Position numbers and translations under genes: made by a program. From positions 96,001-160,000 of the forward strand of contig CAWCTR010000008.1 in the NCBI GenBank assembly GCA_963798485.1: a stretch of 64,000 bases of DNA, in the 5' to 3' direction. The stretch comes from an uncultured delta proteobacterium. Its GTDB lineage: Bacteria; Desulfobacterota; Desulfomonilia; UBA1062. Shown piece after piece: positions 28,153 to 45,399 of this stretch (positions are counted from its first letter, which is position 1; the number at the start of each line of letters is the position of its first letter). The notes beneath the pieces were generated by a model that had not been told where the DNA came from, made no database searches, and saw only the letters and a program-made list of their open reading frames with translations.

Positions 28153-28176
28153 CTAATTTACTGAATAGTAAATTAG
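28153..28176. promoter_or_regulatory. Perfect inverted repeat CTAATTTACT-N4-AGTAAATTAG, probable ArsR operator
   Basis: Lies about 30 bp upstream of the arsR start. Confidence 0.65.
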
Positions 28177-28335
28177 ATGCCGCATGTCAATACCGTTTAT
28201 TACTCTACCGAAAAGAAGCATTTATGCCCTACACGGAAGGAAATAGATATCACCGCAAGAAATTATCAAACTACGATGATCTAATAATTAACATCTACGT
28301 GTAGGGATATCCAATCCTAAATCCTAAAATCCACT

Positions 28336-29540: not shown

Positions 29541-30092
29541 GTGTCAAATGCTCTGACTGAAGACATCAACCTGATCATCCGTTTCAAGGATGGGGACCTT
29601 TCAGCATTCGAGGAGCTTGTCCGGAAGAACGAGGACAGGATATACAACCTCTGCCGCTACATGCTTCGCGATATATCCGATGCACAGGATGCAGCACAGG
29701 ACACCTTCATAAAAGCCTACAAGGGCCTGAAAGACTTCCACCCCGAGGCATCTCTCTCCACATGGCTTTACCGGATCGCAGTAAACACCTGCCTTGATCA
29801 CAGAAAGAAATACCGCCGTGATCCATTGAACGGGGAGATCCTGTCAGAAGACCTGCAGTCACCCGAGCCCTCACCTGAGGGCCGTTATCACGAGAAAAAG
29901 AGCACAGAAGAATTACGTGCAGCGCTCCGGAATCTTCCTGAAAAGCTCAGATCGGCAATTGTCCTAAGGGAGGTCGAAGGGCTCTCTTATGAAGAGATCG
30001 CCGTGGTTCTCGATAGCTCCGTGGGTACAGTGAAATCGAGGATAGCACGGGCACGTGATGAGCTGAGGGTTATTTTCCACGGAAAACGGTAA
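29541..30092 (+). CDS. ECF sigma factor
   Basis: GDLSAFEELV, DAQDAAQDTF, STWLYRIAVN, GLSYEEIA..GTVKSRIARAR. Confidence 0.92.
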   Translation: MSNALTEDINLIIRFKDGDLSAFEELVRKNEDRIYNLCRYMLRDISDAQDAAQDTFIKAYKGLKDFHPEASLSTWLYRIAVNTCLDHRKKYRRDPLNGEILSEDLQSPEPSPEGRYHEKKSTEELRAALRNLPEKLRSAIVLREVEGLSYEEIAVVLDSSVGTVKSRIARARDELRVIFHGKR

Positions 30093-30110
30093 GCTAAAAA
30101 TAATTTTCAC

Positions 30111-30141
30111 GGAACAAATTATCTCCTCGCTCGTTTAATCA
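30111..30141 (+). promoter_or_regulatory. ECF-type promoter GGAAC-N16-CGTTTAATCA (copy 1)
   Basis: Same motif and spacing at 34575-34604. Confidence 0.7.
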
Positions 30142-30177
30142 TATGAAACAGGATGAACAATAGAGAGGAGAAAGTTC

Positions 30178-31530
30178 ATGCGTTCCACGTCAAAAGGCAT
30201 TGGTTATATTGTTTGTGTCGTCTGCGCTTTCCTTATTCTTCTCTCGGATGAATCCGTAGGAGCGCAGGAGGTAAACTACCAGGCACTTTCCCTGGAAGAC
30301 TGTCTGGCCCTTGCTCAGCAGAATAACCCGATTCTCGGCGCAAGCAGGGAGAAGGTCCGGGAACTGGAGGCCGACTATCAGGCGGCACGGTCGAAGTTCT
30401 TCCCGAGGCTGGCCTTGTCGTCTTACTTTGAACGGCTTGCCCCGGGCCGTCTGTCACCTGGCGGAGCTTCTGCAAACGTACCATTGTTTGGCCTTGAAAC
30501 ATTCGGTGGTATTTCCGGCAAGCAGATCCTGTTTGACGGGATGAAAACTTATTATAACTCTCAGGCTGCCGAGCTTGGGACCCAGGCGCAGAAGCAGGAA
30601 GTCCAAAGAACCTCGGACGAGGTGACCTTTACGGTGACCGAGGCCTATTGTCGTCTGATGGAGGCCAAAGAGGATGTGAAGGTTGCCGGGGATGCCTTGA
30701 AGCAACGACAGGATTTTGCACTACTTACCCGGGCTTTTTTCAAAGCCGGTAAAGTGACCCATCTTGATTCCTTGCGAGCTCAGTCGCAGGTTGCTGATGC
30801 AGAGCAGGCAAATGTCGAGGCGGAAAACGCAGTCCGCATCGCTCGGGAAATCCTGATCCGGGTCCTGGGGCTCAAAGAGCACGTGGAAGTGGATATCCAG
30901 GGGCAATTGCCCCAGCAGGCGGTTCAGGCCGGGAACGTCGAAAACTTGTGGCAGGAGGCTTTACAACACAATCCTGAAATCAAGTCGCTCGATCTGGAAA
31001 TAGAGCAAAGCCGGACCTCGGTTAAAGCAGCACAAGGCGGGTATTTCCCGGAGCTCAGCCTGCAGGGAAGCACTGGGGTGCGCCACCGGGACATCGGCGG
31101 CTCCGAGCCGGAATGGCTGGCCGGAGTTTTTGTGGATTATCCCCTTTTTGAAGGAGGCGTGACCAAGGCCCAGATAGCCAAGGCTTCCTCCCAGAACCTG
31201 CAGCTTCTGGAGAAAAAAAGGGACCGGCTTGGCAGCCTCAAGGTGGACCTCGCAGCAGCATGGAAGGATCAGGAGACTGCCCGCCAGGGAATGATTGCTA
31301 CCAGGCAGATTGTGACAGCGAATGAAGAGGCTTATGCGAGCGCAGAGAGTCTCTATCGATACGGCAAGGTAACCGGCCTCGATGTGCTTCAGGCCCAGGT
31401 TGATCTGACCACATCGCGTTTCAGGATGATACAATACCATGTTTCTTACAAAATTGCCCTTGCACGGATCAAACAGATCATAGGCTCCGGTCCTTCGGTC
31501 CCTTCCCAACAAAGTCATATCGGGGGTTAA
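30178..31530 (+). CDS. TolC-family outer-membrane efflux protein
   Basis: Signal peptide, LSLEDCLALA..NNP, FFPRL, YFPELSL, DVLQAQ. Confidence 0.9.
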   Translation: MRSTSKGIGYIVCVVCAFLILLSDESVGAQEVNYQALSLEDCLALAQQNNPILGASREKVRELEADYQAARSKFFPRLALSSYFERLAPGRLSPGGASANVPLFGLETFGGISGKQILFDGMKTYYNSQAAELGTQAQKQEVQRTSDEVTFTVTEAYCRLMEAKEDVKVAGDALKQRQDFALLTRAFFKAGKVTHLDSLRAQSQVADAEQANVEAENAVRIAREILIRVLGLKEHVEVDIQGQLPQQAVQAGNVENLWQEALQHNPEIKSLDLEIEQSRTSVKAAQGGYFPELSLQGSTGVRHRDIGGSEPEWLAGVFVDYPLFEGGVTKAQIAKASSQNLQLLEKKRDRLGSLKVDLAAAWKDQETARQGMIATRQIVTANEEAYASAESLYRYGKVTGLDVLQAQVDLTTSRFRMIQYHVSYKIALARIKQIIGSGPSVPSQQSHIGG

Positions 31531-31534
31531 AATA

Positions 31535-32686
31535 ATGAGATTACCAAGGAGGAATAAATCCATAGGGATTGCCATAGGGGTCGCATTACTGGTTTTGCTG
31601 GGATATCGTTTTTTCTGGTATCGTCCGCCGGTGGCAGTAGTAACTGTCGATATGGCAGAGATTCACGGGAAAGTCCACGGACCGGGAACGGTTCAATCCA
31701 GGGTGTCCGTGACAGTAAGCACAAAAATTACCGGTATCCTTGAGAAACTTCATGCAGATCAGGGCGACAGGGTGCAAAAAGGTCAACTCCTAGCTGTACT
31801 TGATGCTGTGGAACTGAAAGCACGGAAAGAAGCGGCCAATGCAGCCAAAGGCCGGACGGAACGTGATCTGGCAAAGGCCCGGGCTGATTTGATAAGGACC
31901 CAGGCCAACTTGAGCCTGGCGCAAAGCAATTATCGCAGGGATCTGGAGGTATTTAAACCCGGTTATATCTCCCAGGCCGCCTTCGACACCACAAAAGCAG
32001 CGCTGAAGATTGCCGAGAGTGAAGTAGACGCCGGTCAGGCCACCGTGAAGGCCCTGCAGGCTGCGGTCAATCAGGCGGAATCGGAAACCCGTGCAGCTGA
32101 TGCGCTTCTCGGCTATACCCGCATCTATGCCCCCATGGACGGCCTGATCACGGTGCGCAAGGCGGAAACAGGGAGCACGGTTGCTCCGGGGACTGCCATC
32201 TTTCAAATGGTTGACCTGAACCAAATCTGGACAGCCTCATGGATCGATGAAACCAAGATAAGCGGGCTCCGTTTGGGACAGAAGGCTACAATCCGATTGC
32301 GCTCAGGATGTATGTACCAAGGGGAGGTGGCACGCATAAACAGAGAAGCCGATACCGTAACACGTGAACTGGAGGTCGATGTGAAATTTTACAAGCTTCC
32401 CGAGCCCCTGGTCATCGGTGAAGAGACTGAGGTCGATATCGAAACCGGCTCTCAATCTGCTCTTGCCGTCCCATTATCCGCCATCATGGAACAAAGTGGC
32501 GTAAAAGGTGTGTTCGTAGTTTCCATCGGGCGTACCGGTTTTCAGAAAGCCAGCCTGGGGATACATGACGACCGAGTGACTACCGTTCTCTCCGGCCTTA
32601 AGAAAGGTGACCTGGTGGTTCTTAATCCTCTAGGGATCAAGCCGGGTATGCGAGTTCGGCCTGAGATTAACAGCTACGGAAGGTGA
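31535..32686 (+). CDS. Efflux periplasmic adaptor (MFP)
   Basis: DQGDRVQKGQLLA lipoyl half-motif, coiled coil, IYAPMDG. Confidence 0.9.
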   Translation: MRLPRRNKSIGIAIGVALLVLLGYRFFWYRPPVAVVTVDMAEIHGKVHGPGTVQSRVSVTVSTKITGILEKLHADQGDRVQKGQLLAVLDAVELKARKEAANAAKGRTERDLAKARADLIRTQANLSLAQSNYRRDLEVFKPGYISQAAFDTTKAALKIAESEVDAGQATVKALQAAVNQAESETRAADALLGYTRIYAPMDGLITVRKAETGSTVAPGTAIFQMVDLNQIWTASWIDETKISGLRLGQKATIRLRSGCMYQGEVARINREADTVTRELEVDVKFYKLPEPLVIGEETEVDIETGSQSALAVPLSAIMEQSGVKGVFVVSIGRTGFQKASLGIHDDRVTTVLSGLKKGDLVVLNPLGIKPGMRVRPEINSYGR

Positions 32687-32689
32687 TGA

Positions 32690-33889
32690 ATGGACCTGGC
32701 ATTCTATGATCTCAAGCTTCATAAAGGCCGTTTCATCGCCACCATTATCGGCGTAGGACTCCTGTTTACCATCGTTCTGGCCATGAACGGTCTCTATCGC
32801 GGCAATATCTATGAAGGCCTGGCAATCATCAACAGCACCAATCCCGACCTCTGGGTGGTGGAACGTTACAAAGGAGGGCCTTTCAACGAACAGTCCACCA
32901 TGCCCGAATTTTTCCATTACAGCATACGGGCTATACCCGGAGTGGAGAAGGCAGGTCCCTTCATCTACTACAGTGTGGAAAGACCGGTGAAAGGAACCAG
33001 TATGCATTTCGGTATCATCGGCTATGACGTCTTCGGCGGCCTGGGTGGACCGAAGAATATCTATGCAGGAAGGAATATCGAGCATGCCCATTATGAAATG
33101 GTTGCCCATCCCAACCTGGGGGTACACCTTGGGGACAAGATTACTTTGGGGCTTCACACCTATACCGTGGTGGGCCTGACTAAGGAGGCCGTTTCCACGG
33201 ATGGTGAGCCGTTAATCTATTTATCTCTGCCGGATGCCCAGGAAGTGCTCTTTCAGAAAGACAACGAAGAGGTGCGCAACCAACGTGAGCGGTTGCTTAA
33301 TACTCTTTCCGGACAGGACTCCTTAACTCCTGCAGAGGCGGAAAAGCTCCTTCCCAAGCTGGAGCCGGATACCCATACCATCAATGCCGTCCTCGTGAAA
33401 CTGAAACCCGGGGTGAGTCGCGCCGAAACAGCAGACAGGATCGAGAGGTGGCTTTATTTCTCCGTCTTCACCACGCAGGAGGAGATCCAGCTTATGCTGA
33501 AAGGACGACTGGCGGGAATGACCAAGCAGCTCCTGCTCTTCAGGACCCTCCTGCTGATCATTTCCGTGGTTATCATCACCCTGGTGATCTACACGTTTAC
33601 CATGGAAAAGATCCGCAGTATCGCAGTCCTGAAGCTTATTGGTGCTCCGAACCGGGATATTGTCCGGCTTGTGTTGGAGCAATCTCTCCTGCTGACGATC
33701 AGCTCTTATATATTCGGCCTGGTCCTGATACAGGGCACGTACAACCTCTTTCCAAAAACTATACTGCGAGTGCCGGGAGATGATCTCCTTACCTTTGCCG
33801 TAGCGGTTTTTGGAGGAATTCTTGCCAGTATCCTGGGCTTATGGCAGGCCTTGAAAACCCAGCCAGCGATGGCCCTTGGAGGGAATTGA
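32690..33889 (+). CDS. MacB/FtsX-type ABC permease
   Basis: N-terminal TM, periplasmic domain, EKIRSIAVLKLIGA. Confidence 0.88.
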   Translation: MDLAFYDLKLHKGRFIATIIGVGLLFTIVLAMNGLYRGNIYEGLAIINSTNPDLWVVERYKGGPFNEQSTMPEFFHYSIRAIPGVEKAGPFIYYSVERPVKGTSMHFGIIGYDVFGGLGGPKNIYAGRNIEHAHYEMVAHPNLGVHLGDKITLGLHTYTVVGLTKEAVSTDGEPLIYLSLPDAQEVLFQKDNEEVRNQRERLLNTLSGQDSLTPAEAEKLLPKLEPDTHTINAVLVKLKPGVSRAETADRIERWLYFSVFTTQEEIQLMLKGRLAGMTKQLLLFRTLLLIISVVIITLVIYTFTMEKIRSIAVLKLIGAPNRDIVRLVLEQSLLLTISSYIFGLVLIQGTYNLFPKTILRVPGDDLLTFAVAVFGGILASILGLWQALKTQPAMALGGN

Positions 33890-34572
33890 TGGAAGTCCTC
33901 AAGATTGAAAAACTGACCAAGATATTCGGCAGCGGGCATATGGAAGTACGGGCACTGGAAGATATCGATCTCTCAGTGTCTGCTGGGGATCTGACAGCCC
34001 TTCTGGGACCAAGCGGCTCGGGCAAAACTACACTGCTCCTATGCGTCAGCCTGATCCTCGACCCTACCATCGGGAATATTATCTTCGACGGCGAGCCAAT
34101 TTATCAGGACGGTTGGGCTGTTGGCGATATCCGGCTTCTGCGCCGGGAGAAAATCGGTTTTATCTTCCAGTCCCACAATCTGATCCCCTTCCTTACTGTC
34201 CGACAGAACGTGCTTCTTCCCTTAAGCCTGGTAGGTATTAAGGGAAGGGCAGCGCAGCATCGGGTGATGGAACTCCTGGAATATATGGAGATCGTTGATA
34301 GGGCCGACTATCTGCCTGCTCTGCTCTCCGGAGGTGAGCAGCAACGTGTGGCCATCGCCCGTGCCCTGGCCAATAATCCGAAACTCATCCTGGCGGATGA
34401 GCCCACTGCTGCATTGGACAGCGTGAGGGGGAAAAAAGTCATGGACCTGCTCAAAAAAATTGCTAGAGAGAATAACTCGGCAGTTATTGCGGTAACCCAC
34501 GATGTTCGGATGATCGAAGGGTTTGACCATGTCTATCATCTCAAGGACGGCCGTTTGAACAATAATAATTGA
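33889..34572 (+). CDS. ABC transporter ATP-binding protein
   Basis: [26 protein letters not shown]. Confidence 0.93.
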
Positions 34573-34574
34573 AG

Positions 34575-34604
34575 GGAACAAAATCCGATCTCAATCGTTT
34601 AATC
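34575..34604 (+). promoter_or_regulatory. ECF-type promoter GGAAC-N16-CGTTTAATC (copy 2)
   Basis: Matches 30111-30141; precedes the anti-sigma gene. Confidence 0.7.
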
Positions 34605-34620
34605 AATATGGAGAGAAGAA

Positions 34621-35094
34621 ATGGGATGCAGACGGATAAAAAAAATGATGTCCCTGTACATCGATAACGAACTGTCACCTGTCGATAAGGAGACCTTTCT
34701 GCTTCATATAAAGAGCTGTCCTCATTGCAGTAAGGAGCTTGCGGAATCACAAGCCGTCCATCAGCTGTTCACCAAAGCTGAAAAATCTCCTGCGCCCTAT
34801 GGGTTCACGGCGCGCGTAATGGCGAACTTGGAGCAGAAAACACTACCAGAAAAAAGGATTTGGGATATCTTCGTTTTCAGGCCTTTCCTTCCCCGGTTTG
34901 CCGGAGTGGTCCTGGCCCTCGCAGTCATGGTGTTCGGGATTATTACAGGGAACCTGCTCGTAACAGGTATGGCTGTTCCTAAGAATGCCGCGACTATCGA
35001 ACAGGTATTCTCTCTCGATGTGTTTCAGGCAAACCCTCCTGGGACCCTTGAGGGTGCTTATGCCACCATAATGGAGGTGGACAATGAAGGGTAA
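34621..35094 (+). CDS. Zinc-binding anti-sigma factor (zf-HC2/ZAS) with TM helix
   Basis: C..YIDNEL..HIKSCPHC (HxxxCxxC). Confidence 0.88.
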   Translation: MGCRRIKKMMSLYIDNELSPVDKETFLLHIKSCPHCSKELAESQAVHQLFTKAEKSPAPYGFTARVMANLEQKTLPEKRIWDIFVFRPFLPRFAGVVLALAVMVFGIITGNLLVTGMAVPKNAATIEQVFSLDVFQANPPGTLEGAYATIMEVDNEG

Positions 35095-35569
35095 TACGCT
35101 GAAGTTCATACTTGTTATCTCTCTTATTCTGAACCTTTCAGTCTTCATTTCAGCAGGGATTGTCTATTACAGACATCACACAGGCAATTATGCACCACCC
35201 TTTGTATGTGATTTCCAGAAAGGAAACAGGTTTATCTTTGATAAACTAGACCTCAAACCTGAACAGATGAGCATATTCAGGGATAAGGCATTACCCTTTC
35301 GCACTAAAATTATTGAGAAGAGACATGAGATACTTCAGAAGAGATCGGCTCTCCTTGAACTCATGCGAGCAGAAATGCCCGATAAACCTGCAATCGATGC
35401 AGCCATAATTGATATCAACAGGATGCAGGGGGATATGCAGAGGATGGTCATCAGCCACATGCTCGAAATGAAGGCTATGCTCAACAAGGATCAGCAGAAA
35501 AGGTTTTTTCATCTAATAGAAAAAACCATGGGTTCAAACATAGATATGCCAATGCCGATGATCCGATAA
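35084..35569 (+). CDS. Periplasmic Spy/CpxP/ZraP-like heavy-metal sensor
   Basis: SLILNL signal, LDLKPEQ and MLNKDQQKRF (LTxxQ-like) motifs. Confidence 0.8.
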   Translation: MKGNTLKFILVISLILNLSVFISAGIVYYRHHTGNYAPPFVCDFQKGNRFIFDKLDLKPEQMSIFRDKALPFRTKIIEKRHEILQKRSALLELMRAEMPDKPAIDAAIIDINRMQGDMQRMVISHMLEMKAMLNKDQQKRFFHLIEKTMGSNIDMPMPMIR

Positions 35570-35584
35570 TCCTGGAGATAAATA

Positions 35585-35866
35585 ATGAACTTGCACTATT
35601 TTGTAAATGAGCTCTACTACCATAAGAGAAGAACACTGACTGCAATCATCGGCCTCTCGATAGGTATTGAGCTCTTAATTGTCATAAATGCCCTTTCCTT
35701 GGCCTACCACGATGCGGCACGTGCACCATTGAAAGAGATCGGGGCTGATATAACGGTCCAACGTTCAGGGAATGTTCCCAAAGAACTTATAGGTCCTGTT
35801 TTTCCGTGTTCAGCCATCACTATAAACAATGATGAGGTTAAGAAGATTGCAGAACTTATATCATAG
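35585..35866 (+). pseudogene. Truncated ABC permease (N-terminal 93 aa only)
   Basis: RRTLTAIIGLSIG..IGADITVQ permease N-terminus ends abruptly in AT-rich DNA. Confidence 0.7.
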
Positions 35867-35975
35867 CTCCCATAAGTTATTTCTAAGATCAAATTTATAC
35901 TTTTCCAGTTTTTTATCTACGTAGAAAATGTCAACCAATGTACCTATTGACAACATAAAGTAGCCGATATATATA

Positions 35976-35990
35976 GTTAACAGTATGAAC
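35976..35990. promoter_or_regulatory. Probable MarR operator GTTAACAGTATGAAC overlapping the marR start
   Basis: 14/15 match to the reverse complement of 36507-36521; TTGACA at 35947. Confidence 0.7.
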
Positions 35991-36467
35991 AAGATGGCAG
36001 CACACAAGAGCGATATCTTTCTCGGCAATCAGACTCTGAGACTCCGGAATCTCATTACAGAGATGAACAACTGCTGCGAAGACCGGCATCTTATCGAGAA
36101 GAAGAAGTTCTCGCTCCCCATTGCGGAGATGAAGTGTATAGTCCTCTTCAAGGAGGAGAAGTACCTGACCGTCAAAGGCATCGCCGCAAAGCTGGATGTA
36201 GCCAAAAGCCGGGTGACGAAGCTCGTCGACAATCTCTCCAGGAAGGGTCTGGTGAACAAGATCGAAGACCCCGAAGACGCCAGGATAAAGCTTATCAGTC
36301 TCTCTCCGAAGGGGAAGGTGCTTGTGGAAGAGATCCAAGAGTTCCAGGAGCAGCTGTACGAGGAGATCCTCACCCTGTTCGACGAGAAGGAGAGGGCGAG
36401 CATCCTTTCGAATCTCGAAACATTGAGATCGGCCATGGAAGTCGTCAAGAATAAACATGAGTTGTAA
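35985..36467 (+). CDS. MarR-family regulator
   Basis: KGIAAKLDVAKSRVTKLVDNL..KGLV..DPEDAR..LSPKG; CC pair and a further Cys. Confidence 0.9.
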   Translation: MNKMAAHKSDIFLGNQTLRLRNLITEMNNCCEDRHLIEKKKFSLPIAEMKCIVLFKEEKYLTVKGIAAKLDVAKSRVTKLVDNLSRKGLVNKIEDPEDARIKLISLSPKGKVLVEEIQEFQEQLYEEILTLFDEKERASILSNLETLRSAMEVVKNKHEL

Positions 36468-36495
36468 AAAAGCACCTCACGGGAGGTGTTTTTTT
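36466..36495 (+). terminator. Intrinsic terminator after marR
   Basis: AGCACCTC-ACGG-GAGGTGTT stem followed by a T tract. Confidence 0.75.
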
Positions 36496-36506
36496 AACAA
36501 ATAATA

Positions 36507-36521
36507 GTTCACACTGTTAAC
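36507..36521. promoter_or_regulatory. Probable MarR operator GTTCACACTGTTAAC upstream of psrA
   Basis: Inverted copy of 35976-35990. Confidence 0.7.
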
Positions 36522-36542
36522 GATATAGCAAAGGAGGGGTTC

Positions 36543-38753
36543 ATGGCAAAGTTCACGAGAAGAGAGTTCATAAAGATCTCCAGTGGGGCATTGCTCGGTG
36601 TTGCCGGTACAAGCATCCTCCCCGGTTTGAACCTACTCCATGCGGATTCCATACCTGATCCGGGGACCACGGCTGACAGGATTGTACCAAGTTATTGCGG
36701 TCTCTGCTTCTGGAATTGTGGGATACTGGTCCATGTCAAGGACGAGAAGATCATCAAGATAACCGGTAATCCGAGGCACCCTTTATCGAATGGAAAGCTC
36801 TGCCCCAGGGGGGCCGGGGGCACCGGACTTGTCTATGACCCTGATCGGCTAAGGAAGCCCCTGATACGGAAAGAGGAACGATCAAGGCAGGTCTTTAAGG
36901 AAGTAGGGTGGAACGAGGCCCTGGACTATACGGCGGAAAAGATGCTGGCCATAAAGAGCAAATATGGACCCGAGGCCTTCGCCCTCCTTACCCACGGCTC
37001 GGGTGGAGTATGGCTGAGACAGCTTCTCACCTCGTACGGCACGGCTAATATCGGAGTGCCCAGTTATGCGCTGTGCAGGGGTCCGGTTGAGACCGGTTTT
37101 TTCCTTACCTTCGGTGCCAGTCCGCCTGAAGTGGAAAACACCGACATGAGAAACGCCAGGTGCATCACTCTCATCGGAACACATCTCGGTGAAAACATGC
37201 ACAACACCCAGGTTCAGGATTTCTCCCAGGCCATCGGAAACGGCGCACAGCTAATTGTCGTCGACCCCCGTTATTCGGTTGCTGCGTCAAAGGCACGATA
37301 CTGGCTCCCCATAAAGCCGGGAACCGATACGGCCCTGCTCCTTGCCTGGATGAACGTCATCATTGAAGAGAAGCTGTACGATGCAGAGTATATCGGGAAA
37401 TACGCGACAGGCTTTGAAGAGCTGAAAAAACATGTGGCGGATAAAAACCCGGAATGGGCCTATACCAGGACAGGCATAACCCCGGCAATCATCCGAGAGA
37501 CCGCCCGGCTCATGGCTGCATACAAACCCGCATCCTTCATCCACTGCGGCAGGCGCACGACCTGGTATGGAGACGATACGCAGCGCCTGCGGGCTATTGC
37601 GATGCTCAATGCACTGCTGGGTGCCTGGGGACGTAAGGGCGGTTATTATCTGCCGGCTGAGATGGAACTTCCCCCGTACCCGTATCTCAAGAAAAGCGAC
37701 TACAAACCTAAAGCCCCTGTCGATCAGCCTAAAAATACTGCGTATCCTTTCGCTGAATCGATCCTGGCAACAGGCCTCAGAGACGCAAGCATCCCGGGGA
37801 CCGCAACCTACGATATCCATGGGTGGATGGTATACGGCTCCAACCCGATCAATTCATTCACACAGCCGAAGAAGACCTATGATGCGATACAGCATCTGGA
37901 TTTCATCGTCACCATAGACAACCTGCCAGTCGAGATAGCAGGCTGGTCCGATGTGATCCTTCCAGAATGCACCTACCTCGAACGTTATGATGACTTGAAC
38001 AGCGCACCCTTCAGGGTACCTTTCGCGGCAATGAGGCAGAAGGCTATCGAGCCCATGTATGATTCGAAGCCGGCCTGGTGGATAGCCAAGCAACTGGCGG
38101 CCAGGCTCGGGCTGGAAGACTATTTCCCATGGAAGGATGCTGAAGAATACCTGAGAGTACGGGTGAAGAACGCAGGTCTTGACTGGGAAACTCTGAAGAA
38201 GAACGGGGTGATCGTTGGGAAGGAGCAGCCCATCTATATCGAAGACGGCATAGTGCCGACCTTCGATACCCCATCCAAAAAGATAGAGCTGTACTCCGCA
38301 CAACTGAAGGCAGCAGGGTTCGATCCCATGCCCGAATACAAACCGGTGCAAGACCCTCCCGAGGGAATGTTCAGGCTCCTCACCGGAAGATCCCCCGTCC
38401 ATTCGTTCGGGAGAACAACAAACAACCGCCTGCTGGGGGACTGTTACCCGGAAAATGAGGTGTGGGTTAACGATAATGTCTGTGATGAGTTGGGTATCAA
38501 GGAGAAGCAGAAGGTCGTACTGGTGAATGCCGAAGGGGTCAAGAGCATCCCGGTGAAGGTCAAAAAGACCCAAAGGATCAGGCCCGACTGCGTGTTCCTT
38601 GTTCACGGCTTCGGACACAGGCAGAAGAAAATGGAATTCGCCTACAACAAGGGTGCCGACGACACGGAGCAGATGAACAATGACAAGACCGATCCCCTCA
38701 TCGGGTCGAAGGCCCTGAACGTAAACTTTGTCAAGATCGAACAAGAGGTGTGA
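36543..38753 (+). CDS. Molybdopterin oxidoreductase catalytic subunit, PsrA/PhsA/SrrA clade
   Basis: Tat signal TRREFIK, CGLCFWNCG..KLCPRG FeS motif, PSYALCRGP Cys ligand region, HSFGRT. Confidence 0.9.
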   Translation: MAKFTRREFIKISSGALLGVAGTSILPGLNLLHADSIPDPGTTADRIVPSYCGLCFWNCGILVHVKDEKIIKITGNPRHPLSNGKLCPRGAGGTGLVYDPDRLRKPLIRKEERSRQVFKEVGWNEALDYTAEKMLAIKSKYGPEAFALLTHGSGGVWLRQLLTSYGTANIGVPSYALCRGPVETGFFLTFGASPPEVENTDMRNARCITLIGTHLGENMHNTQVQDFSQAIGNGAQLIVVDPRYSVAASKARYWLPIKPGTDTALLLAWMNVIIEEKLYDAEYIGKYATGFEELKKHVADKNPEWAYTRTGITPAIIRETARLMAAYKPASFIHCGRRTTWYGDDTQRLRAIAMLNALLGAWGRKGGYYLPAEMELPPYPYLKKSDYKPKAPVDQPKNTAYPFAESILATGLRDASIPGTATYDIHGWMVYGSNPINSFTQPKKTYDAIQHLDFIVTIDNLPVEIAGWSDVILPECTYLERYDDLNSAPFRVPFAAMRQKAIEPMYDSKPAWWIAKQLAARLGLEDYFPWKDAEEYLRVRVKNAGLDWETLKKNGVIVGKEQPIYIEDGIVPTFDTPSKKIELYSAQLKAAGFDPMPEYKPVQDPPEGMFRLLTGRSPVHSFGRTTNNRLLGDCYPENEVWVNDNVCDELGIKEKQKVVLVNAEGVKSIPVKVKKTQRIRPDCVFLVHGFGHRQKKMEFAYNKGADDTEQMNNDKTDPLIGSKALNVNFVKIEQEV

Positions 38754-38754
38754 T

Positions 38755-39297
38755 ATGAGCCGGAAACGATATGTCATGGCCATGGATACGATAAAATGCG
38801 TCGGCTGCAATGCCTGTGTCATAGCATGCAAGAACGAGAACAAGGTCCCGCTCAATCATTTCAGGGACTGGGTGGAGCAAGAGCTCAGCGGAGACTATCC
38901 CCATCTCTTCATGGAGATCCGCTCCCAGCGCTGCAACCATTGTTCGGATGCACCGTGCGTGAAGGTGTGCCCTACGGGAGCGAGCTGGATAACCAAGGAA
39001 GGCATTGTGCTGGTGGACAAAAATAAGTGCATCGGCTGCAAGGCCTGTATCGCCGCCTGTCCCTATGGAGCAAGGTATGTACACCCCAAGGGGTATGTGG
39101 ACAAGTGCACGTTCTGCGTCCATCGCATCAAGAAATCTCTCGAACCTGCATGTGTCGAAATATGTCCTACCTCCAGCCTTACCTTCGGAGACTTGAACGA
39201 TCCTGCCAGCGAGGTATCCAAGCTCCTGGCGTCACGGAAGAACAAGGTGGAAAAACCCGAGGCCGGGTGCAAACCCAATCTCTATTTCCTGGTATAA
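38755..39297 (+). CDS. 4Fe-4S dicluster subunit (PsrB/NrfC-like)
   Basis: Four Cys motifs: CVGCNACVIAC, CNHC..PCVKVCP, CIGCKACIAACP, CTFC..PACVEICP. Confidence 0.92.
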   Translation: MSRKRYVMAMDTIKCVGCNACVIACKNENKVPLNHFRDWVEQELSGDYPHLFMEIRSQRCNHCSDAPCVKVCPTGASWITKEGIVLVDKNKCIGCKACIAACPYGARYVHPKGYVDKCTFCVHRIKKSLEPACVEICPTSSLTFGDLNDPASEVSKLLASRKNKVEKPEAGCKPNLYFLV

Positions 39298-39309
39298 GGA
39301 GGGCACGGC

Positions 39310-40266
39310 ATGAATACTATCGAGCTTATGACGACAAGGGCCAATCCGGGCATCGATCCGGTGCTGCTTATCTGGGGATGGCAGATACCCGTTTACCTCT
39401 TCCTCGGGGGGCTGGTGGCCGGATTGATGATCATAGCATCCCTGCAGGAATGGAGATTTAGGGATAAGTGGGAGCCCAGGCTCTCGAAGATCATCCCGAT
39501 TCTTGCCATGGCTCTGCTAACCCTGGGCATGCTTGCCCTGTATCTCGATCTGGAGATCAGGGGACTCAAGCTGAACGTTATCAGGCTCTACATGACTTTC
39601 AAACCGGCTTCTCCTATTTCCTGGGGGGCGTGGATACTGATGATTACCTATCCCTGCCTGGCATTATGGCTCATCGGCAGCCTCTCTTCCCAGGGGCTAG
39701 AACGTTTTACGGCCAAAGCCCGTTTCCTGAGATTCCTTACACCGCTTCATAGATGGGCATCAAGGGTGAAAGAGAAGGTGCTTGCGGTGAACATCATTGT
39801 AGGTATAGCACTGGGTATCTATACCGGCATCTTCCTGAGCGGCATGGTATCACGCCCCGTATGGCATTCAGGTCTCCTGGGGCCGCTGTTTCTGATCTCC
39901 GGCATGTCCACGGGTGCGGCGCTCCTGGCCTTGTTCAAGGTTAATCACGATCTGCAGCAGGCGTTCATCAAGTGGGACATATTCGCCCTTATCACCGAGT
40001 CGGGTATCCTCGCACTGTTCTTCCTGGATAACATCACCGGAACGGCACTCCAGAAGAGTGTTGCAGGTCTCTTTCTCGGCGGTCCCTATTCCGGCGCCTT
40101 CTTCGGGCTGGTAGTGCTGGGAGGAATCCTTGCTCCGCTCCTCATCGAGTGGGCGGACCTGAAGGGAAAGGCCAAGGCCCCTTTTCTCGTTCCGGTGTTG
40201 GTGCTCACAGGAGGTCTGGCGTTGAGGTTTGTCATGGTCTCCGCCGGCCAGGCACTCGGGTTTTAA
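39310..40266 (+). CDS. NrfD/PsrC membrane anchor
   Basis: WGWQIPVYLFLGG, SPISWGAW, YTGIFL..RPVW, LALRF. Confidence 0.9.
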   Translation: MNTIELMTTRANPGIDPVLLIWGWQIPVYLFLGGLVAGLMIIASLQEWRFRDKWEPRLSKIIPILAMALLTLGMLALYLDLEIRGLKLNVIRLYMTFKPASPISWGAWILMITYPCLALWLIGSLSSQGLERFTAKARFLRFLTPLHRWASRVKEKVLAVNIIVGIALGIYTGIFLSGMVSRPVWHSGLLGPLFLISGMSTGAALLALFKVNHDLQQAFIKWDIFALITESGILALFFLDNITGTALQKSVAGLFLGGPYSGAFFGLVVLGGILAPLLIEWADLKGKAKAPFLVPVLVLTGGLALRFVMVSAGQALGF

Positions 40267-40294
40267 TCTCTATCAGGATCTTACGGAGGGAACT

Positions 40295-40804
40295 ATGAAG
40301 AAACTATGGAACCCCTATATGGCAGGTGTTGCTCTCGGATTGGTGCTTCTCTTTTCGTATATGCTCGTGGGGCATGGACTCGGTGCTTCCGGGGCCGCAA
40401 ACATTCTCGGAGCTGAGGCTATGAAAGCAGCAGCCCCCGGCTATGCTACAGCCAAGGGAAGCTCTTTTGCCCATTACTTCGTTGACAGCCAGAATGCCAT
40501 GAACAGCTGGCTGATCTTCATGGCCGTGGGGATTTTCCTGGGAGGGTTTGTCTCGTCGGTGCTGAATGGGAGGAACAGCCTGGAGGTGACCAGGGGAGTC
40601 CATACAACAAATAAAAAACGGATTATCCTGGCTCTCATCGGAGGGATCGTCATGGGTGTCGGCGCACGTATCGGTAGGGGCTGCACATCAAGCCAGGCAC
40701 TAAGCGGCGGCGCCCTGCTTTCCGTAGGGAGCTGGATCTTCATGATGGCAGTTTTTGCAGGGGCTTACTCAATGGCTTACTTCGTAAGGAGGGAATGGCT
40801 ATGA
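40295..40804 (+). CDS. YeeE/YedE thiosulfate-transporter-family protein
   Basis: WNPYMAG, GLGASG, GARIGRGCTS. Confidence 0.88.
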   Translation: MKKLWNPYMAGVALGLVLLFSYMLVGHGLGASGAANILGAEAMKAAAPGYATAKGSSFAHYFVDSQNAMNSWLIFMAVGIFLGGFVSSVLNGRNSLEVTRGVHTTNKKRIILALIGGIVMGVGARIGRGCTSSQALSGGALLSVGSWIFMMAVFAGAYSMAYFVRREWL

Positions 40805-41988
40805 TGACTCTGTTTCCCATAATCAACGGAACCTTCCCACCGGCAATGGAATTCATCCCTGTGCTCATCATCGGGGTCCTCTTCGGTATGGCCCTTGAGG
40901 TGGCGGGCTTCGGCAGTGCAAAAGTCCTTGCAAGCCAGTTCTTTTTCCACGATATGCGGGTCTTCAAAGTGATGTTCACCTCCATCATCACCGCTGCTGC
41001 AGGAGTCGCCGTACTTACGACAACAGGTCTTCTCGATATGGACCTCCTCTATATACCGGAAACCTTCCTCGTACCGCTTGGGGTCGGAGGGTTTATCCTT
41101 GGAATGGGCTTCATGGTTTCGGCGTATTGCCCTGGGACCAGCATCGTTGGCGCAGCATCCGGCAAACTGGACGGGCTCGTGACCTTTGCGGGGGTGATCG
41201 TAGGGTCAGTGCTTTTCGGCATGGTGAACCCCTATATCAACGGTTTTTATATGAGCACGGCAAAGGGTGTGCTCACGTTCCCCAAGCTCCTTGGTGTTTC
41301 GTTTCCGGTCCTTGCCACAATACTGATCGCCATGGCCATCATGTTGTTCCTGGCCGCGGATAAGGTCGAAGCCATATTTGCCAGGAAGTTGGACATGCCC
41401 GAGGGGCAGAAGATGACCGGCAGGGCAAAGAAGGCCCTCGGCGTGGTGTTTGCACTGAGCCTTATGGCCATCATCTTCCAGTACACGCTGCCTGTTGGTA
41501 AAGGAATGGATAATGGGGGTAGGGTATCTTCCATCACCCCGGTTGAACTCGGGCAGATGCTTGTGGGAGACCCCCGGTCTCTGTACGTAGTCGATCTGCG
41601 TGAAGGCAATGCATGCAAAGGTGCTGAGAACATACCATCGGCAAGCTGTTTCAGTGAAATAAAGGATAACCTCGAATTTATGTACAAGGGCAAGACCATG
41701 GTCGTCTATTCCCAGGATGGTGAAAAACGACTGCCAGAGGATCTATTAAAATACCAGGGCAGAATCGCGACCTTGGAAGGCGGGTATGATGCATGGAGAA
41801 CTATGGTGATCGGGAAGCCGGAACAGGCGTATCAGGCCTTTCTGAATACTTCAAACAATGAAAAAAAGAACATGATTTCCGCTCTCCATTCCTATTTTAC
41901 CGGGGCGAAGATGGAAGCCCAGGCCGAATCCGCGAAGCCCGGTGTGATCATCGTAAAGCCCAAAAAGAAGAGCGGGGGTTGCTCATAA
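40795..41988 (+). CDS. YeeE/YedE protein fused to a rhodanese-like domain, C-terminal GGCS
   Basis: LEVAGF, DMRVFKVMF, AYCPGT; VVDLR..NIPSA..MVVYS..LEGGYDAW. Confidence 0.85.
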   Translation: MAMMTLFPIINGTFPPAMEFIPVLIIGVLFGMALEVAGFGSAKVLASQFFFHDMRVFKVMFTSIITAAAGVAVLTTTGLLDMDLLYIPETFLVPLGVGGFILGMGFMVSAYCPGTSIVGAASGKLDGLVTFAGVIVGSVLFGMVNPYINGFYMSTAKGVLTFPKLLGVSFPVLATILIAMAIMLFLAADKVEAIFARKLDMPEGQKMTGRAKKALGVVFALSLMAIIFQYTLPVGKGMDNGGRVSSITPVELGQMLVGDPRSLYVVDLREGNACKGAENIPSASCFSEIKDNLEFMYKGKTMVVYSQDGEKRLPEDLLKYQGRIATLEGGYDAWRTMVIGKPEQAYQAFLNTSNNEKKNMISALHSYFTGAKMEAQAESAKPGVIIVKPKKKSGGCS

Positions 41989-42007
41989 GGAATTTAAAGA
42001 AGATATC

Positions 42008-42298
42008 ATGAACTTTGTAGGATTACAGGCTGCCATGCACCTGTTCGGCCTCAGCGAGAGGGCCACGCTCAAGGAGATCAAGGCCCGGTACCGGAAACTG
42101 GTGAAGCAATATCATCCGGATGCCGGGAATACCAAGAATCAGGAGATGATACGGAAGGTGAATGAAGCAAATCGCATTCTACTTGATTATGTCCAGTCTT
42201 ACCGTTATTCCTTCACCGAAGAGGAATTCTGCGAGCAACACCCGGAAGAGCGAATTAGGAGGCAATTCAAGGACGATCCGCTCTGGGGGAATGGATAG
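42008..42298 (+). CDS. Small J-domain protein
   Basis: EIKARYRKLVKQYHPD..VNEA. Confidence 0.88.
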   Translation: MNFVGLQAAMHLFGLSERATLKEIKARYRKLVKQYHPDAGNTKNQEMIRKVNEANRILLDYVQSYRYSFTEEEFCEQHPEERIRRQFKDDPLWGNG

Positions 42299-42310
42299 GA
42301 ATATCGGTCA

Positions 42311-42825
42311 ATGGATAATAGCAATGTAAAAGTAAGGCCACAGCGAATTATGGTCTTTCAACAAAATGGAAGCGGGGAGAATAAAATCAAAGGAATACGT
42401 CAATTCGGAAGGGATCGTTTTGTTATTGAGACATATGATATTGATGCACCCTTGCCTGGCCTGATCGAAAACAGCAACGGGTATCTCCCGGAAACGATCG
42501 ATGCAGATATTGTCCTCGATTATCTGCAACATCCCGACCTGTCCAAGATGGTAGAGTTGCTGAAATCTCTGTACTACGGAGCGCTCCCTGCGGTGCAACC
42601 TGGGAAGCAGCAAAGCAAACGATCGGAATTCGAATTGAAGAGGCACCTGTACATATCGGCCTCAAAACACAGTACTATTGTACGGCCGATCCCGCTGGTT
42701 GGGATGTGATGTATGGTAAAAGTCCTGTGCATTTTTCGGCAGAACTCAACAAAGTCGCTTTAAAAAAAGCAATAGATCGTTTAAAATGGAAATACTATGT
42801 TGGAATCCACCACTCAAAACAATGA
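42311..42825 (+). pseudogene. DUF166-family gene with internal deletion/frameshift at ~42545
   Basis: Frame 1 VFQQNGSGENKI..HPDLS jumps directly to another frame, DGRVAEISVLRSAPCGATWEAA..YCTADP..GKSPVH. Confidence 0.7.
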
Positions 42826-43354
42826 TAGGGATGTCAGAAGATTCAAGCCGGTATTCCATGAAAAGGATAAATTCAATCATCCCGGTCAGTTTTTACAACG
42901 CAGATTCAAGGACCCCATGCATTTCGTGTACAATCTTATCGACCTGTTTAGATACACTCCCGATCTGATCCGGGTTTACTTCGGCAGAACGATCTCTCCC
43001 CGCTTTCGTGAGATGATTATGCTGACCGTAGCGAGTACCAATGACTGCAGTGCCTGAACCGATGCACACTATCGATTCGGTCGAATCGCAGGTCTCAGAG
43101 ATGAAGAAATCAAGAATATCGGCCCACTCAGGAAAGAGGATTACGACGAACAGATTTGGGTTGCATTACATTGGGCTAGAAATTATGTCCTCTTTGAAGG
43201 CGACTTCCCGGATAAGAGCGTGGACGAGATTTTCTGTCGAGCATATCCACTCTGTGAACAGAAGGCCATATTTGCCACACTGAAACTGATGCTGTTCTTT
43301 AACATGCTCATGAACGTTTTCAACAAAAAGGGTTCACGCCTGTTGAGAAAGTAA
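42797..43354 (+). CDS. AhpD/carboxymuconolactone-decarboxylase-family selenoprotein (CxxU; UGA at 43055-43057), 185 aa
   Basis: REMIMLTVASTNDCSA-U-TDAH fits the AhpD E..V...N.CxxC...H motif; frame stays open 98 codons after UGA; hairpin at 43073-43088. Confidence 0.85.
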
Positions 43355-43391
43355 AGATGTTTCAGTGGCTATCCTAAACTACAACTTTGTT

Positions 43392-43757
43392 TTAATGGTT
43401 GTGCTCTCCGCATCCGTCGTGGGCAGCGCATGTTGATCCTGAGTCATTCAAAGAGCCTCTGAGCCAGTCCTCGACTACATTTCGCACGTTGCCGCTGCAC
43501 CCGCGTACAACCTCGATCCCATGAGAGTTCAGCACATTGACTGCACCAGCACCCATGTTCCCGGCGAGCATCACCTTTACCCCCATGTTGGCAAGGGCAC
43601 CCACTATGTTGGACTTACAGCCGCAACCAGCAGGCGGTTCCACAATTTCCTGGTTAACGATCTTTTTCTGATCGTCGACCGTGATTACAGTAAAATATTC
43701 ACAATGTCCAAAATGACCATCGACCATGTTCCCATTCGAAGGCAGTGCGATCTTCAT
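43392..43757 (-). CDS. NifB/NifX-family (orange-protein-like) protein
   Basis: MKIALP..VDGHFGHC..GCGCK..AGNMGAGA; GGAG RBS. Confidence 0.88.
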   Translation of the reverse strand: MKIALPSNGNMVDGHFGHCEYFTVITVDDQKKIVNQEIVEPPAGCGCKSNIVGALANMGVKVMLAGNMGAGAVNVLNSHGIEVVRGCSGNVRNVVEDWLRGSLNDSGSTCAAHDGCGEHNH

Positions 43758-44055
43758 ATATTTCTCCATTCATGTATGTGTTACCCCAAAGATGCCGAAC
43801 ACATCGTCCATGATCATCTTCACTGGGGTTATCCAGAAAAGCGTGCAGAGCTTACAGTGCGTTTGATTCATAATAAGCATGCATTCTTAACTCTTCCCCC
43901 ATAGCCTGAAAACTTATCATTAGCAATCCCGACTTTGAGAGCAATGAGCCAACATACTTTTTTTAACGGGTCTTTAAAGGCTTACAAGTATTAAATCACC
44001 ATCTTTTAAGATCAATTGATCATTATAATTAGTTGGTTAGTTTTGTTCGACTCCG

Positions 44056-45399
44056 TCATTTCCGAGGAGCAACCTTGCGGTAGTTCATATTTGACATTAG
44101 TGCAAACATCGTCGCAGTGAAGTCATGGGTTTTCTGAAAGGTTGATAAGGCTTTGTGAAACAACACCGGCCAGGCATAGATTTGCCGGTTAATCTCAATC
44201 ATCTTTTGGGACAACTGATCAGGCTCCATACTACCGGGCCGATGAATCACTTCGGTCATGTCATAGTGGTCCCAATCTTTATGAAAATTGGTATAGAGTA
44301 ATCGCTGCTCTTTACAATATCGGTCAAAAATCCGTGTGCCAGGCAGCGGAGTCAGGAAGGTGGTCTGCATCACATCTATTTCATGATGAACCATGTAGTC
44401 GGCGCGCTGTTGCAGTTTATCGGGGGTGTCACTATCCACTCCGAAGATGAAGGCGCCCAAAACAGCAATCCCTGCACGGTTGATACGACGGAATGCCTGT
44501 GAGTAATAATCTACTCCACGATTAATATTGAGGTGCTTGTTGACCTCTTCCAGGGCACCATCTTCCTCTGCTTCAAGCCCTAAGAAGACCATCTTGCATC
44601 CGGCGCGGCTTGCCCAGGAAACCACCTCGTCATCATCCCCGAAGTTGAGTGAAGCCTGGCAGAACCACCACTTGTTCAGCCTGCGCTCCACCATCCCTTT
44701 GAAAATCGCCAAGGCCTGTTCACGCGACTCCTTGCCATACCCGATGATATTGTCATCCACAAAGAATATCATTTTCTCCGGGATAGTCTCCAGTTCAGCC
44801 AATACTTCCCAGGGAGGACGGCGGCGGTATCGCCTTCCATTAAAGGCGCTCACCGAACAGAATTCGCAGTCCATGGGACAACCCCTTGAGGTTTGCACAG
44901 AGGCGAACATGTAGCTAGGATGAAACAGGTCCCTCCGCGGGTTCGGTACGCCTGACAAATCAGACCAGCCGCCCTTGTACATCTGCTGGAGACTCCCGGC
45001 CTCGACATCGGCTATGACTTGAGGCCATACGGCCTCAGCCTCGCCGATAACCACGGCATCTGTAAAACAAAGGGCTTCTTCCGGGCACATGGAGGCATGG
45101 ATACCCCCTATCACCACAGGCACACCTCGTTGCCGATAGATCGAGGCAATCTCATATGCCCGATTCGCAGAGGCGGTAAAGGCCGTAATGCCCACCAAAT
45201 CCGCTTCTTCATAGGAGAAGGGCTCCCAGTTCTCATCAAGCAGCTTTACATCCCATGAGGAAGGGGTAGCGGCTGCGACAATCCCCAAGCCGATGGGGGG
45301 AAACCGTGAAGACCTGTTGACGGTGAGGCCTACACGCGCAGGATTCACAGGATTAATGAGGACCAGTCTCCGGTGGTTCAAGTTATTATTAAGTTGCAT
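44056..45399 (-). CDS. Cobalamin-binding radical SAM protein
   Basis: PPIGL, ADLVGIT, VVIGGIHAS, GEAE B12 domain; QTSRGCPMDCEFC. Confidence 0.9.
   Translation of the reverse strand: MQLNNNLNHRRLVLINPVNPARVGLTVNRSSRFPPIGLGIVAAATPSSWDVKLLDENWEPFSYEEADLVGITAFTASANRAYEIASIYRQRGVPVVIGGIHASMCPEEALCFTDAVVIGEAEAVWPQVIADVEAGSLQQMYKGGWSDLSGVPNPRRDLFHPSYMFASVQTSRGCPMDCEFCSVSAFNGRRYRRRPPWEVLAELETIPEKMIFFVDDNIIGYGKESREQALAIFKGMVERRLNKWWFCQASLNFGDDDEVVSWASRAGCKMVFLGLEAEEDGALEEVNKHLNINRGVDYYSQAFRRINRAGIAVLGAFIFGVDSDTPDKLQQRADYMVHHEIDVMQTTFLTPLPGTRIFDRYCKEQRLLYTNFHKDWDHYDMTEVIHRPGSMEPDQLSQKMIEINRQIYAWPVLFHKALSTFQKTHDFTATMFALMSNMNYRKVAPRK

Follow-up and report, generated by a model that had tools for sequence, protein, structure and literature searches.

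We analyzed a 64,000-nucleotide stretch of DNA (here, the window) from an uncultured delta proteobacterium of the Desulfobacterota (GenBank assembly GCA_963798485.1; contig CAWCTR010000008.1, positions 96,001 to 160,000), in which a ten-gene run on the + strand, from position 35985 to position 43354 of the window, had been interpreted in an earlier note as a single module for the respiration and handling of selenium and sulfur oxyanions. A listing of open reading frames (ORFs), together with Pfam and NCBIfam profile scans of the window, recovered all of the genes named in that note. We consider it probable that the run is composed of two independent units, the first covering positions 35985 to 41988 (unit 1) and the second positions 42008 to 43354 (unit 2), and, as part of the same explanation, that unit 1 is involved in a periplasmic reduction of sulfane sulfur or thiosulfate that is coupled to a carrier arm and a membrane channel. 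Unit 1 combines a MarR-family regulator and the molybdoenzyme genes psrABC with two half-length yeeE genes, one of which encodes a fusion to a rhodanese-like arm ending in a conserved cysteine; unit 2 holds genes for a J-domain protein, a DUF166 (DfsP) protein, and an AhpD-like selenoprotein.

The psrABC-yeeE unit and its conservation

The case for unit 1 is carried by its recurrence in other genomes. A scan with PsrA over one genome per species recovered 592 relatives, of which the best 80 loci (53 to 86% identity) were kept and surveyed with the window proteins by tblastn (E ≤ 1e-5), complemented by a strict recount. Fifty-nine of the 80 loci retain at least 3.4 kb after psrA and were judged, the other 21 being too short. 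At all 59 of these, psrB, psrC, and both yeeE genes accompany psrA on the same strand and within 4.5 kb, in the order A-B-C-E1-E2 at 33 loci and A-B-E1-E2-C at 26, the latter placing the channel genes between psrB and psrC. By their record titles, the carriers belong to the Myxococcota, Acidobacteriota, Gemmatimonadota, Planctomycetota, Bdellovibrionota, and others, i.e., more than six phyla; they include an isolate, Anaeromyxobacter soli SG29 (L066), and an annotated plasmid of Chondrinema litorale (Bacteroidota; WSW3-B12, L123) bears the same gene set. Judged from these sequence comparisons, psrABC with a split yeeE and a rhodanese-like arm is a real conserved unit that is widespread. To this extent, the grouping made in the earlier note stands. 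In contrast, the genes for the J-domain, DUF166, and AhpD-like proteins, which it had joined to the same module, were found by tblastn at the same threshold in none of the 80 psrA loci, and the presumed co-conservation of the genes downstream of 41988 thereby falls away. In the two closest relatives, L033 (86% identity) and L035 (76%), tblastx synteny with the window ends exactly at 41988, and the GC content is 0.51 to 0.55 over psrA-yeeE versus 0.46 to 0.48 over positions 41500 to 43500, dropping from about 0.54 to about 0.46 past 41988.

The alternative is that all ten genes form one sulfur and selenium module in which periplasmic reduction is followed by import via YeeE and by cytoplasmic processing by the J-domain, DUF166, and AhpD-like proteins. 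The genes are indeed codirectional and tightly spaced: from the MarR gene onward, the intergenic gaps are 75, 1, 12, and 28 bp, followed by a 10-bp overlap, gaps of 19 bp (41988/42008, between the fusion and the J-domain gene) and 12 bp (42298/42311, between the J-domain and the DUF166 gene), and a final overlap. Moreover, the interval between 41988 and 42008 yielded no terminator-like site, the organism uses selenocysteine (Sec), and DfsP and AhpD-like proteins belong to thiol/selenol redox families (PMC9312934, PMC13188914). However, the + strand run already begins at 29541, with sigma-factor and efflux genes upstream of the MarR gene, and codirectionality is therefore weak evidence for a single module. 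The promoter and terminator scans gave 9 and 10 sites against 8.6 and 7.7 expected from shuffled sequence, and an Rfam scan of positions 35000 to 44500 gave zero matches. Against a single module stand not only the 80 psrA loci devoid of the downstream genes and the break in synteny and GC content at 41988 but also the dead DfsP gene, the 30 DfsP loci lacking J-domain and AhpD genes within 1.5 kb, and the separation of the AhpD-like selenoprotein gene from psr in three genomes of the same genus (see below). We hold a single module to be very improbable.

The catalytic subunit encoded by psrA (36543 to 38753) is a molybdoenzyme of the bis-molybdopterin guanine dinucleotide type with Molybdop_Fe4S4 (PF04879, 54.5 bits), Molybdopterin, and Molydop_binding domains. 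Its N terminus (MAKFTRREFIK...) displays a twin-arginine translocation (Tat) motif, and R6, R7, and F9 of this motif are invariant in 54 sequences, as are C52, C55, C59, C87, and C178. The adjoining psrB (38755 to 39297), whose orthologs align from 38755, encodes a four-cluster ferredoxin subunit (Fer4_11, 83.4 bits; four Cys motifs), and psrC (39310 to 40266) encodes an NrfD-type, quinol-interacting membrane anchor (PF03916, 129.1 bits). The earlier description of a Tat-exported molybdoenzyme of the PsrA clade with iron-sulfur and NrfD subunits is borne out by these motifs and domains. PsrA aligns with Thermus thermophilus PsrA (Protein Data Bank [PDB] code 2VPW) over residues 5 to 734 with a score of 695 bits, and its Cys178 lies opposite Cys173 of the 2VPW chain, the Mo ligand, as counted by hand in the printed alignment. 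Among NCBIfam models, its best match is to PhsA (NF012032), at 459.7 bits and below the cutoff of 694; it is likewise below the cutoffs for ArrA (155 versus 1600) and TtrA (53.4 versus 1750), and it shares 30.4% identity with the annotated PhsA of an Escherichia coli plasmid. The reductase of unit 1 thus appears closest to the Thermus PsrA type. Thermus PsrA is only 33% identical to the characterized Wolinella PsrA, and polysulfide reduction is described as untested in T. oshimai in the relevant passages of PMC3764938.

A phylogeny of the catalytic subunit against PsrA, PhsA, SrrA, TtrA, and ArrA, which the earlier note had called for, was realized in part: a FastTree phylogeny of 78 rows, whose outgroups were the plasmid PhsA and four paralogs from the window's own genome and which took in no named Wolinella PsrA, SrrA, TtrA, or ArrA sequence, split the module-bearing clade from both outgroups by branches with 99% Shimodaira-Hasegawa (SH)-like support. 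Within this clade, the window PsrA, L033, and L035 form a group nested in a clade of metagenome-assembled genomes labeled Myxococcota or Pseudomonadota (100% SH-like). Orthologs of the fusion protein with more than 30% identity were found in none of 14 genomes of the same genus and 10 of the same family. This distribution suggests that unit 1 was acquired by transfer, for which the tree gives neither donor nor direction.

The MarR-family gene that opens the unit (35985 to 36467; PF01047, 37.5 bits) has a 68% identical copy directly upstream of psrA in L035 and probably encodes the local regulator of unit 1. Of 65 loci, 19 have an ArsR/SmtB regulator of about 100 residues beside the cluster, with 16 copies located upstream and 3 downstream. 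For each of the six that were tested, BigR ranked second among the models, but at 41 to 63 bits versus a cutoff of 155. These ArsR/SmtB regulators (in loci between L031 and L110) carry C-terminal Cys pairs, e.g., CMxxC, and proteins with a seemingly sensor-like N-terminal sequence accompany the module upstream of psrA in 13 loci of that range.

The split channel and its cysteine-tipped arm

The last two genes of unit 1 had been described as two YeeE/YedE proteins, one of them fused to a rhodanese. Both are present, but, as their alignments indicate, they are two halves of one split channel, with the C-half encoded first, and the rhodanese lacks its catalytic Cys. The upstream gene (40295 to 40804) encodes a PmpA-like C-half that matches positions 166 to 309 of the Sulf_transp model (PF04143), and the downstream gene (40795 to 41988) encodes a PmpB-like N-half, matching positions 4 to 200, fused to the arm. 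In alignments, PmpB corresponds to the N-half of full-length YeeE and PmpA to the C-half, each having one essential Cys (PMC11582611). In the C-half, R128, G129, C130, S132, G133, and Q134 of the motif RGCxSGQ are each at least 95% conserved in 63 sequences, and in the N-half, C112 in the motif YCPGT is invariant in 54. These are the only Sulf_transp genes in the host genome. Neither half reached the NCBIfam cutoffs for TsuA (36.7 versus 400 and 34.7 versus 645 bits) or that of the YedE/FdhT selenium model (44.7 versus 350 bits).

Beyond the N-half, the fusion protein continues through a central helix, a K/R-rich loop, an additional hydrophobic helix, the rhodanese-like domain, a further helix, and a linker, rich in Pro and Ala in most orthologs, before ending in a tail. 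Its match to Rhodanese (PF00581) scores 23.1 bits against a cutoff of 22.2, and an NCBIfam scan of the whole protein returned 0 families. In the AlphaFold2 model (mean predicted local distance difference test [pLDDT] score of 83.3), the rhodanese-like domain reaches about 90 and residues 370 to 397 are devoid of secondary structure; Foldseek searches with this model placed single-domain rhodaneses in the top rows, with target-normalized template-modeling scores of 0.5 to 0.67 and E values that were all 0.0015 or greater. Database names for the homologs are limited to "YeeE/YedE family," "rhodanese-related sulfurtransferase," or "hypothetical," and the nearest cluster in the ESM Atlas comprises 6,489 members. 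A plasmid search with the fusion recovered only four partial matches, all to the YeeE part.

Two features set this domain apart. First, in 40 orthologs that were aligned, the position of the catalytic loop is occupied by S, G, D, E, or A and never by a conserved Cys, the window protein reading VVYSQDGEKR without any Cys; having lost its active-site Cys, the domain would be catalytically inactive. Second, the C terminus consists of GGC plus 0 to 2 residues, preceded by a Lys/Arg run, in 58 of the 62 fusion orthologs, the other four comprising one with an MGC end and three that are truncated or divergent. G394, G395, and C396 are invariant in a 54-row alignment of the fusion, whose tail in the window reads KKKSGGCS.

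The domain and its tail are predicted to be periplasmic. In the crystal structure of YeeE, the N terminus is outside and H7 reverses the topology (PMC7449682); by homology, the N-half plus H7 ends inside, and the additional helix then places the arm in the periplasm. The mean number of K and R residues per sequence is 6.08 in the loop after H7, compared with 0.35 to 0.93 in the predicted outer loops. Chondrinema litorale encodes this domain as a separate 202-residue protein, which has MKSR and a hydrophobic anchor at its N terminus, lacks the catalytic Cys, and bears the tail KKKKKVQGGCS. A cytoplasmic location of the rhodanese domain, as in YeeD, was considered and rejected, as it conflicts with both the K and R distribution and the anchored separate form from Chondrinema.

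The genes downstream of 41988 and their genomic setting

We interpret unit 2 as a probable lineage-native patch of small thiol-redox genes, in which genes for a J-domain protein and a presumably functional AhpD-like selenoprotein flank a DfsP gene that is dead. The small J-domain protein (42008 to 42298; PF00226, 46.5 bits) contains the HPD motif (...KQYHPDAGN...). Homologs with 40 to 47% identity occur elsewhere in six related genomes (L156 to L161, in G006, G008, G009, G014, G019, and G024), where they adjoin a pyridine nucleotide-disulfide oxidoreductase of 445 to 476 amino acids in at least four of the six loci. In the window, the J-domain gene adjoins two thiol/selenol redox genes, and there may be a recurring link between the J-domain protein and redox proteins.

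The next gene, dfsP (42311 to 42825), is a remnant, in agreement with its earlier description as a broken DUF166 gene. The piece from 42311 to about 42546 corresponds to positions 1 to 92 of the DUF166 selenoprotein model NF041372, and the piece from about 42550 to 42822, in another frame, corresponds to positions 124 to 202, with the frame change falling near 42547 to 42549; the fragments score 99.3 and 108.5 bits and miss the cutoff of 200. DfsP proteins above that cutoff were found in 48 of 401 genomes of the phylum, and 21 of the 30 best matches hold one TGA; of six homologs printed, five read PPT-U-CGL and the sixth reads PPTCCGL, the motif being situated in the stretch that separates the two parts aligned with the window. 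In all 30 DfsP loci fetched, the parts matching the window fragments are about 138 nucleotides apart, whereas in the window they overlap in two frames. By these comparisons, dfsP is dead, with about 60 codons lost, including the Sec-Cys redox motif. That the gene is merely frameshifted by an assembly error was rejected, as contigs of the runs X1 and X2 (at least 99% alike), which may be the sample of the genome assembly, span the junction and show no difference there. Those of X3 and X4, which come from other studies and are about 95% alike, depart from the window at 42546 and 42550 and gave no cover over about 41000 to 42480. Over window positions 42482 to 43283, these relatives of about 95% identity, which come from sediment metagenomes, have extra DUF166 sequence at the deletion point, followed by the AhpD-like gene; the adjacency of DfsP and AhpD thus predates the deletion. 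No J-domain or AhpD gene was found within 1.5 kb of DfsP in any of the 30 loci.

The AhpD/CMD-like ORF (42797 to 43354; PF02627, 36.9 bits; TIGR00778, 29.4 bits) contains one in-frame TGA (43055 to 43057) within the motif C-S-A-U-T-D-A-H. Orthologs with the same in-frame TGA and 63 to 73% identity are present in 3 of the 14 genomes of the same genus (G006, G007, and G010), where they stand without the psr module, the J-domain gene, or the DUF166 gene nearby. RNAfold predicts a candidate selenocysteine insertion sequence hairpin at 43068 to 43093 on the + strand, with the stem CGAUUC/GAAUCG and the loop GGUC. The stem starts 18 nucleotides after the first base of the UGA. All four orthologous sequences retain the hairpin core, apart from a single A-to-G substitution after which the bases still pair as G-U. 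The host genome encodes the machinery for Sec (tRNA-Sec, SelD, and SelB), and both CxxU AhpD/CMD-like proteins and DUF166 (NF041372) are listed selenoprotein families (PMC9312934, PMC13188914). The conserved TGA, the hairpin, and the Sec machinery uphold the earlier assignment of a CxxU selenoprotein, and we regard this predicted selenoprotein gene as genuine.

Further observations concern the Sec genes of the host and YeeE-like sequences in its relatives. The selD gene (G000:C14:110693-111616) holds an in-frame TGA, which makes SelD a selenoprotein too. Two contigs each bear a selB copy (C27:14132-15973 and C28:1576-3417); the copies are nearly equal and may represent a duplicated gene or an additional strain within the bin, for which the contamination estimate is 6.96%. 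Distant YeeE-like matches (26 to 30% identity) in related genomes hold in-frame stops, namely, three TGA codons in L025 (G009:C164), one TGA and one TAG in L026 (G008:C1), and one TAG in L030 (G019:C1); those bearing TGA could encode selenoproteins of the listed YeeE/YedE GUxSG type or else be broken.

As for the surroundings of the run, the ortholog of the AhpD-like gene in G010 has a NifX-like gene as its neighbor, and another of the orthologs has, like the gene in the window, an AcrB efflux gene no more than about 6.5 kb away. On the - strand of the window, between 43392 and 45405, a NifX-like (Nitro_FeMo-Co) gene is convergent with the AhpD-like gene and lies beside a gene for a B12-binding radical SAM protein. 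Upstream, the + strand genes from 29541 to 35866 encode an ECF sigma factor, a zf-HC2 anti-sigma factor, an outer membrane efflux protein, HlyD, FtsX/MacB and ABC subunits, a Metal_resist protein, and a 93-amino-acid ORF without assignment, a set that, adjoining the psr unit, looks like an envelope or metal stress efflux system. About 7 kb upstream, a further oxyanion-related patch on the - strand (26232 to 29511) encodes in a row a TauE/SafE sulfite exporter, an FmdE-domain protein, an ArsR-type helix-turn-helix regulator, and a chromate transporter.

Proposed sulfur chemistry and relation to known systems

In the explanation that we favor, electrons would flow from quinol through PsrC and PsrB to the Tat-exported PsrA, which would reduce inorganic sulfur species in the periplasm, likely sulfane sulfur (polysulfide, elemental sulfur, or persulfide) or thiosulfate. 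The partners encoded alongside it, i.e., the two-piece YeeE-type channel and the membrane-tethered periplasmic rhodanese-like arm on its N-half, would be obligate. We infer that the tail Cys acts as a covalent sulfur carrier moving between the medium, the funnel of PsrA, and the mouth of the channel, a role of the arm akin to that of Sud or SoxY in other systems, and that the channel passes a sulfur anion across the membrane. Since the host genome (97.5% complete) has no match to dsrA, unit 1 would supply a syntroph-type organism with an additional electron sink. A predicted complex between PsrA (residues 35 to 736) and the arm (residues 236 to 397) lends weak support to a contact between them: across three runs the median score was 0.56, and the best control scored 0.00. 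Of 157 solved complexes, 116 attained this mark, as did 2 of 215 mismatched pairs; the partner pLDDT is at least 72, and the runs agree in at least 67% of contacts.

Several points weigh against this explanation. Only 18 of the 157 solved complexes attained the mark for a predicted contact with a score of 0.60 or less, along with both of the mismatched pairs that passed, and the prediction of the complex used alignments of our own making. The Foldseek search with the fusion model gave no row at E ≤ 0.001 and did not recover YeeE itself. The mouth of YeeE is positively charged (PMC7449682), and a basic tail should therefore be repelled by it. The support values of the PsrA tree are local SH-like values and came with long-branch warnings. 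A control search with PF04143 was without match in the T. thermophilus control genome, where the presence of psrABC is unconfirmed, and the solved Thermus enzyme may work without a YeeE partner. In this genome, unit 2 may be transcribed by read-through from unit 1 across the short gap between them, in which no terminator was found. Finally, the direction of electron flow, i.e., reduction versus oxidation, cannot be read from the sequence.

The last point bears on a second alternative, in which unit 1 is oxidative, assimilatory, or detoxifying and either converts sulfide or thiosulfate into carrier-bound sulfane sulfur while feeding the quinone pool or splits thiosulfate for import by YeeE. Many of the carriers are labeled Gemmatimonadota, Acidobacteriota, Myxococcota, or Planctomycetota, which are largely aerobic or facultative phyla. 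The YeeE family is also known to import thiosulfate or sulfane sulfur (PMC7449682, PMC11582611), and PmpAB has been proposed to take up a product that arises from thiosulfate reduction (PMC9324843). We nevertheless consider this alternative unlikely, as the closest characterized relatives of the enzyme are named reductases and the host lacks a dsrA match (sox and sHdr genes were not searched); the sequence, for its part, does not fix the direction.

A third alternative would make unit 1 an SrrA-like reductase of selenite or another chalcogen oxyanion, respiratory or detoxifying, with the YeeE pair and the arm handling selenium. The selenite reductase SrrA of Bacillus selenitireducens is a member of the Psr/Phs lineage whose gene is accompanied by genes for rhodanese-domain proteins, and in this genome selenoprotein genes adjoin unit 1. 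YedE-like proteins have, furthermore, been linked to selenium transport (PMC11582611, PMC9312934). However, the adjacency of selenoprotein genes, on which the selenium link drawn in the earlier note had rested, is specific to this genome; the YeeE halves fall far below the cutoff of the YedE/FdhT model; and the recurrent regulator in other phyla is of the ArsR/SmtB family, with BigR second best in all six cases and below its cutoff. The selenium link is thus not sustained, and we give this alternative little credence.

Returning to the reduction of sulfane sulfur or thiosulfate by a carrier-coupled PsrABC, we compared unit 1 with characterized systems. The T. thermophilus PsrABC complex (PDB codes 2VPW to 2VPZ, deposited as "thiosulfate reductase") is alike in its full-length PsrA, four-cluster PsrB, NrfD-type PsrC, and Tat signal. 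The PsrABC complex of Wolinella succinogenes is a periplasmic Mo polysulfide reductase served by a rhodanese-fold sulfur carrier, Sud; we know of no YeeE partner of it. Sud is soluble and uses the canonical active-site Cys of rhodaneses, whereas the domain in the window is tethered to the membrane and lacks that Cys, and its conserved Cys ends a disordered tail. PhsABC of Salmonella and E. coli belongs to the same enzyme superfamily, but in the annotated phs locus of the E. coli plasmid PhsC is a cytochrome b subunit rather than an NrfD protein, and no yeeE genes follow. The YeeE/TsuA-YeeD/TsuB and PmpA/PmpB systems share with unit 1 the Sulf_transp fold, a conserved Cys in each half, and a Cys-bearing partner; YeeD, however, is cytoplasmic and TusA-like, in contrast to the predicted periplasmic, rhodanese-fold partner domain in the window. 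The periplasmic protein SoxY has a mobile C-terminal arm with the sequence GGCGG. Its likeness to the arm in the window is confined to the Gly-Gly-Cys logic of the C terminus, the fold and the partner enzyme being different.

The nearest published counterpart is a cluster of phsABC followed by PmpA/B transporters and a sulfurtransferase in "Candidatus Electryonea clarkiae," "Candidatus Lernaella stagnicola," and Caldithrix abyssi (PMC9324843). By its description in the text, as the sequences themselves were not compared, this cluster has the same gene content and order as unit 1 and a Tat signal on its catalytic subunit, and in "Candidatus Lernaella" one PmpA/B transporter carries a sulfurtransferase domain, like the fusion in the window. 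That source calls the transported species and the sulfurtransferase's function unknown, proposes PmpAB as a route of uptake for a reduction product of thiosulfate, and cites a stimulation of fermentative growth and sulfide production by thiosulfate in Caldithrix abyssi; the passages concerned make no mention of the absence of a catalytic Cys, the Cys-bearing C-terminal tail, the topology, or conservation across phyla. Our literature searches returned no paper on a Cys-tipped arm or a cross-phylum module, and otherwise only broad remarks about Psr, rhodaneses, and YeeE in organisms that disproportionate sulfur (PMC12142623, PMC13490349, PMC13047784, PMC13609358, and PMC10952691). The statement in the earlier note that no characterized system has this combination holds for the core, with the qualification that a phsABC-pmpAB-sulfurtransferase cluster was already in print. 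The core of unit 1 is a widespread Psr-type variant that has been noticed in print and never characterized.

Tentatively, we propose, as something possible rather than probable, that PsrABC with this accessory pair acts on sulfur bound to the tail Cys and not on free polysulfide or thiosulfate and that the same arm loads or unloads the split YeeE. Reduction and passage would then be the work of one coupled machine with a Sox-like carrier logic, distributed over thousands of environmental genomes. Counts of psrA and phsA in metagenomes routinely serve as markers of respiration with thiosulfate or polysulfide, and a large psrA clade is always accompanied by a split YeeE and a cysteine-tipped arm. 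If it is true that this clade uses carrier-bound sulfur, such counts would mean something other than what has been assumed, and half-size YeeE proteins, which are widespread and have no assigned function, would gain a concrete, testable one. The run also illustrates that selenoprotein genes next door can hint at a selenium pathway that genome comparison fails to support.

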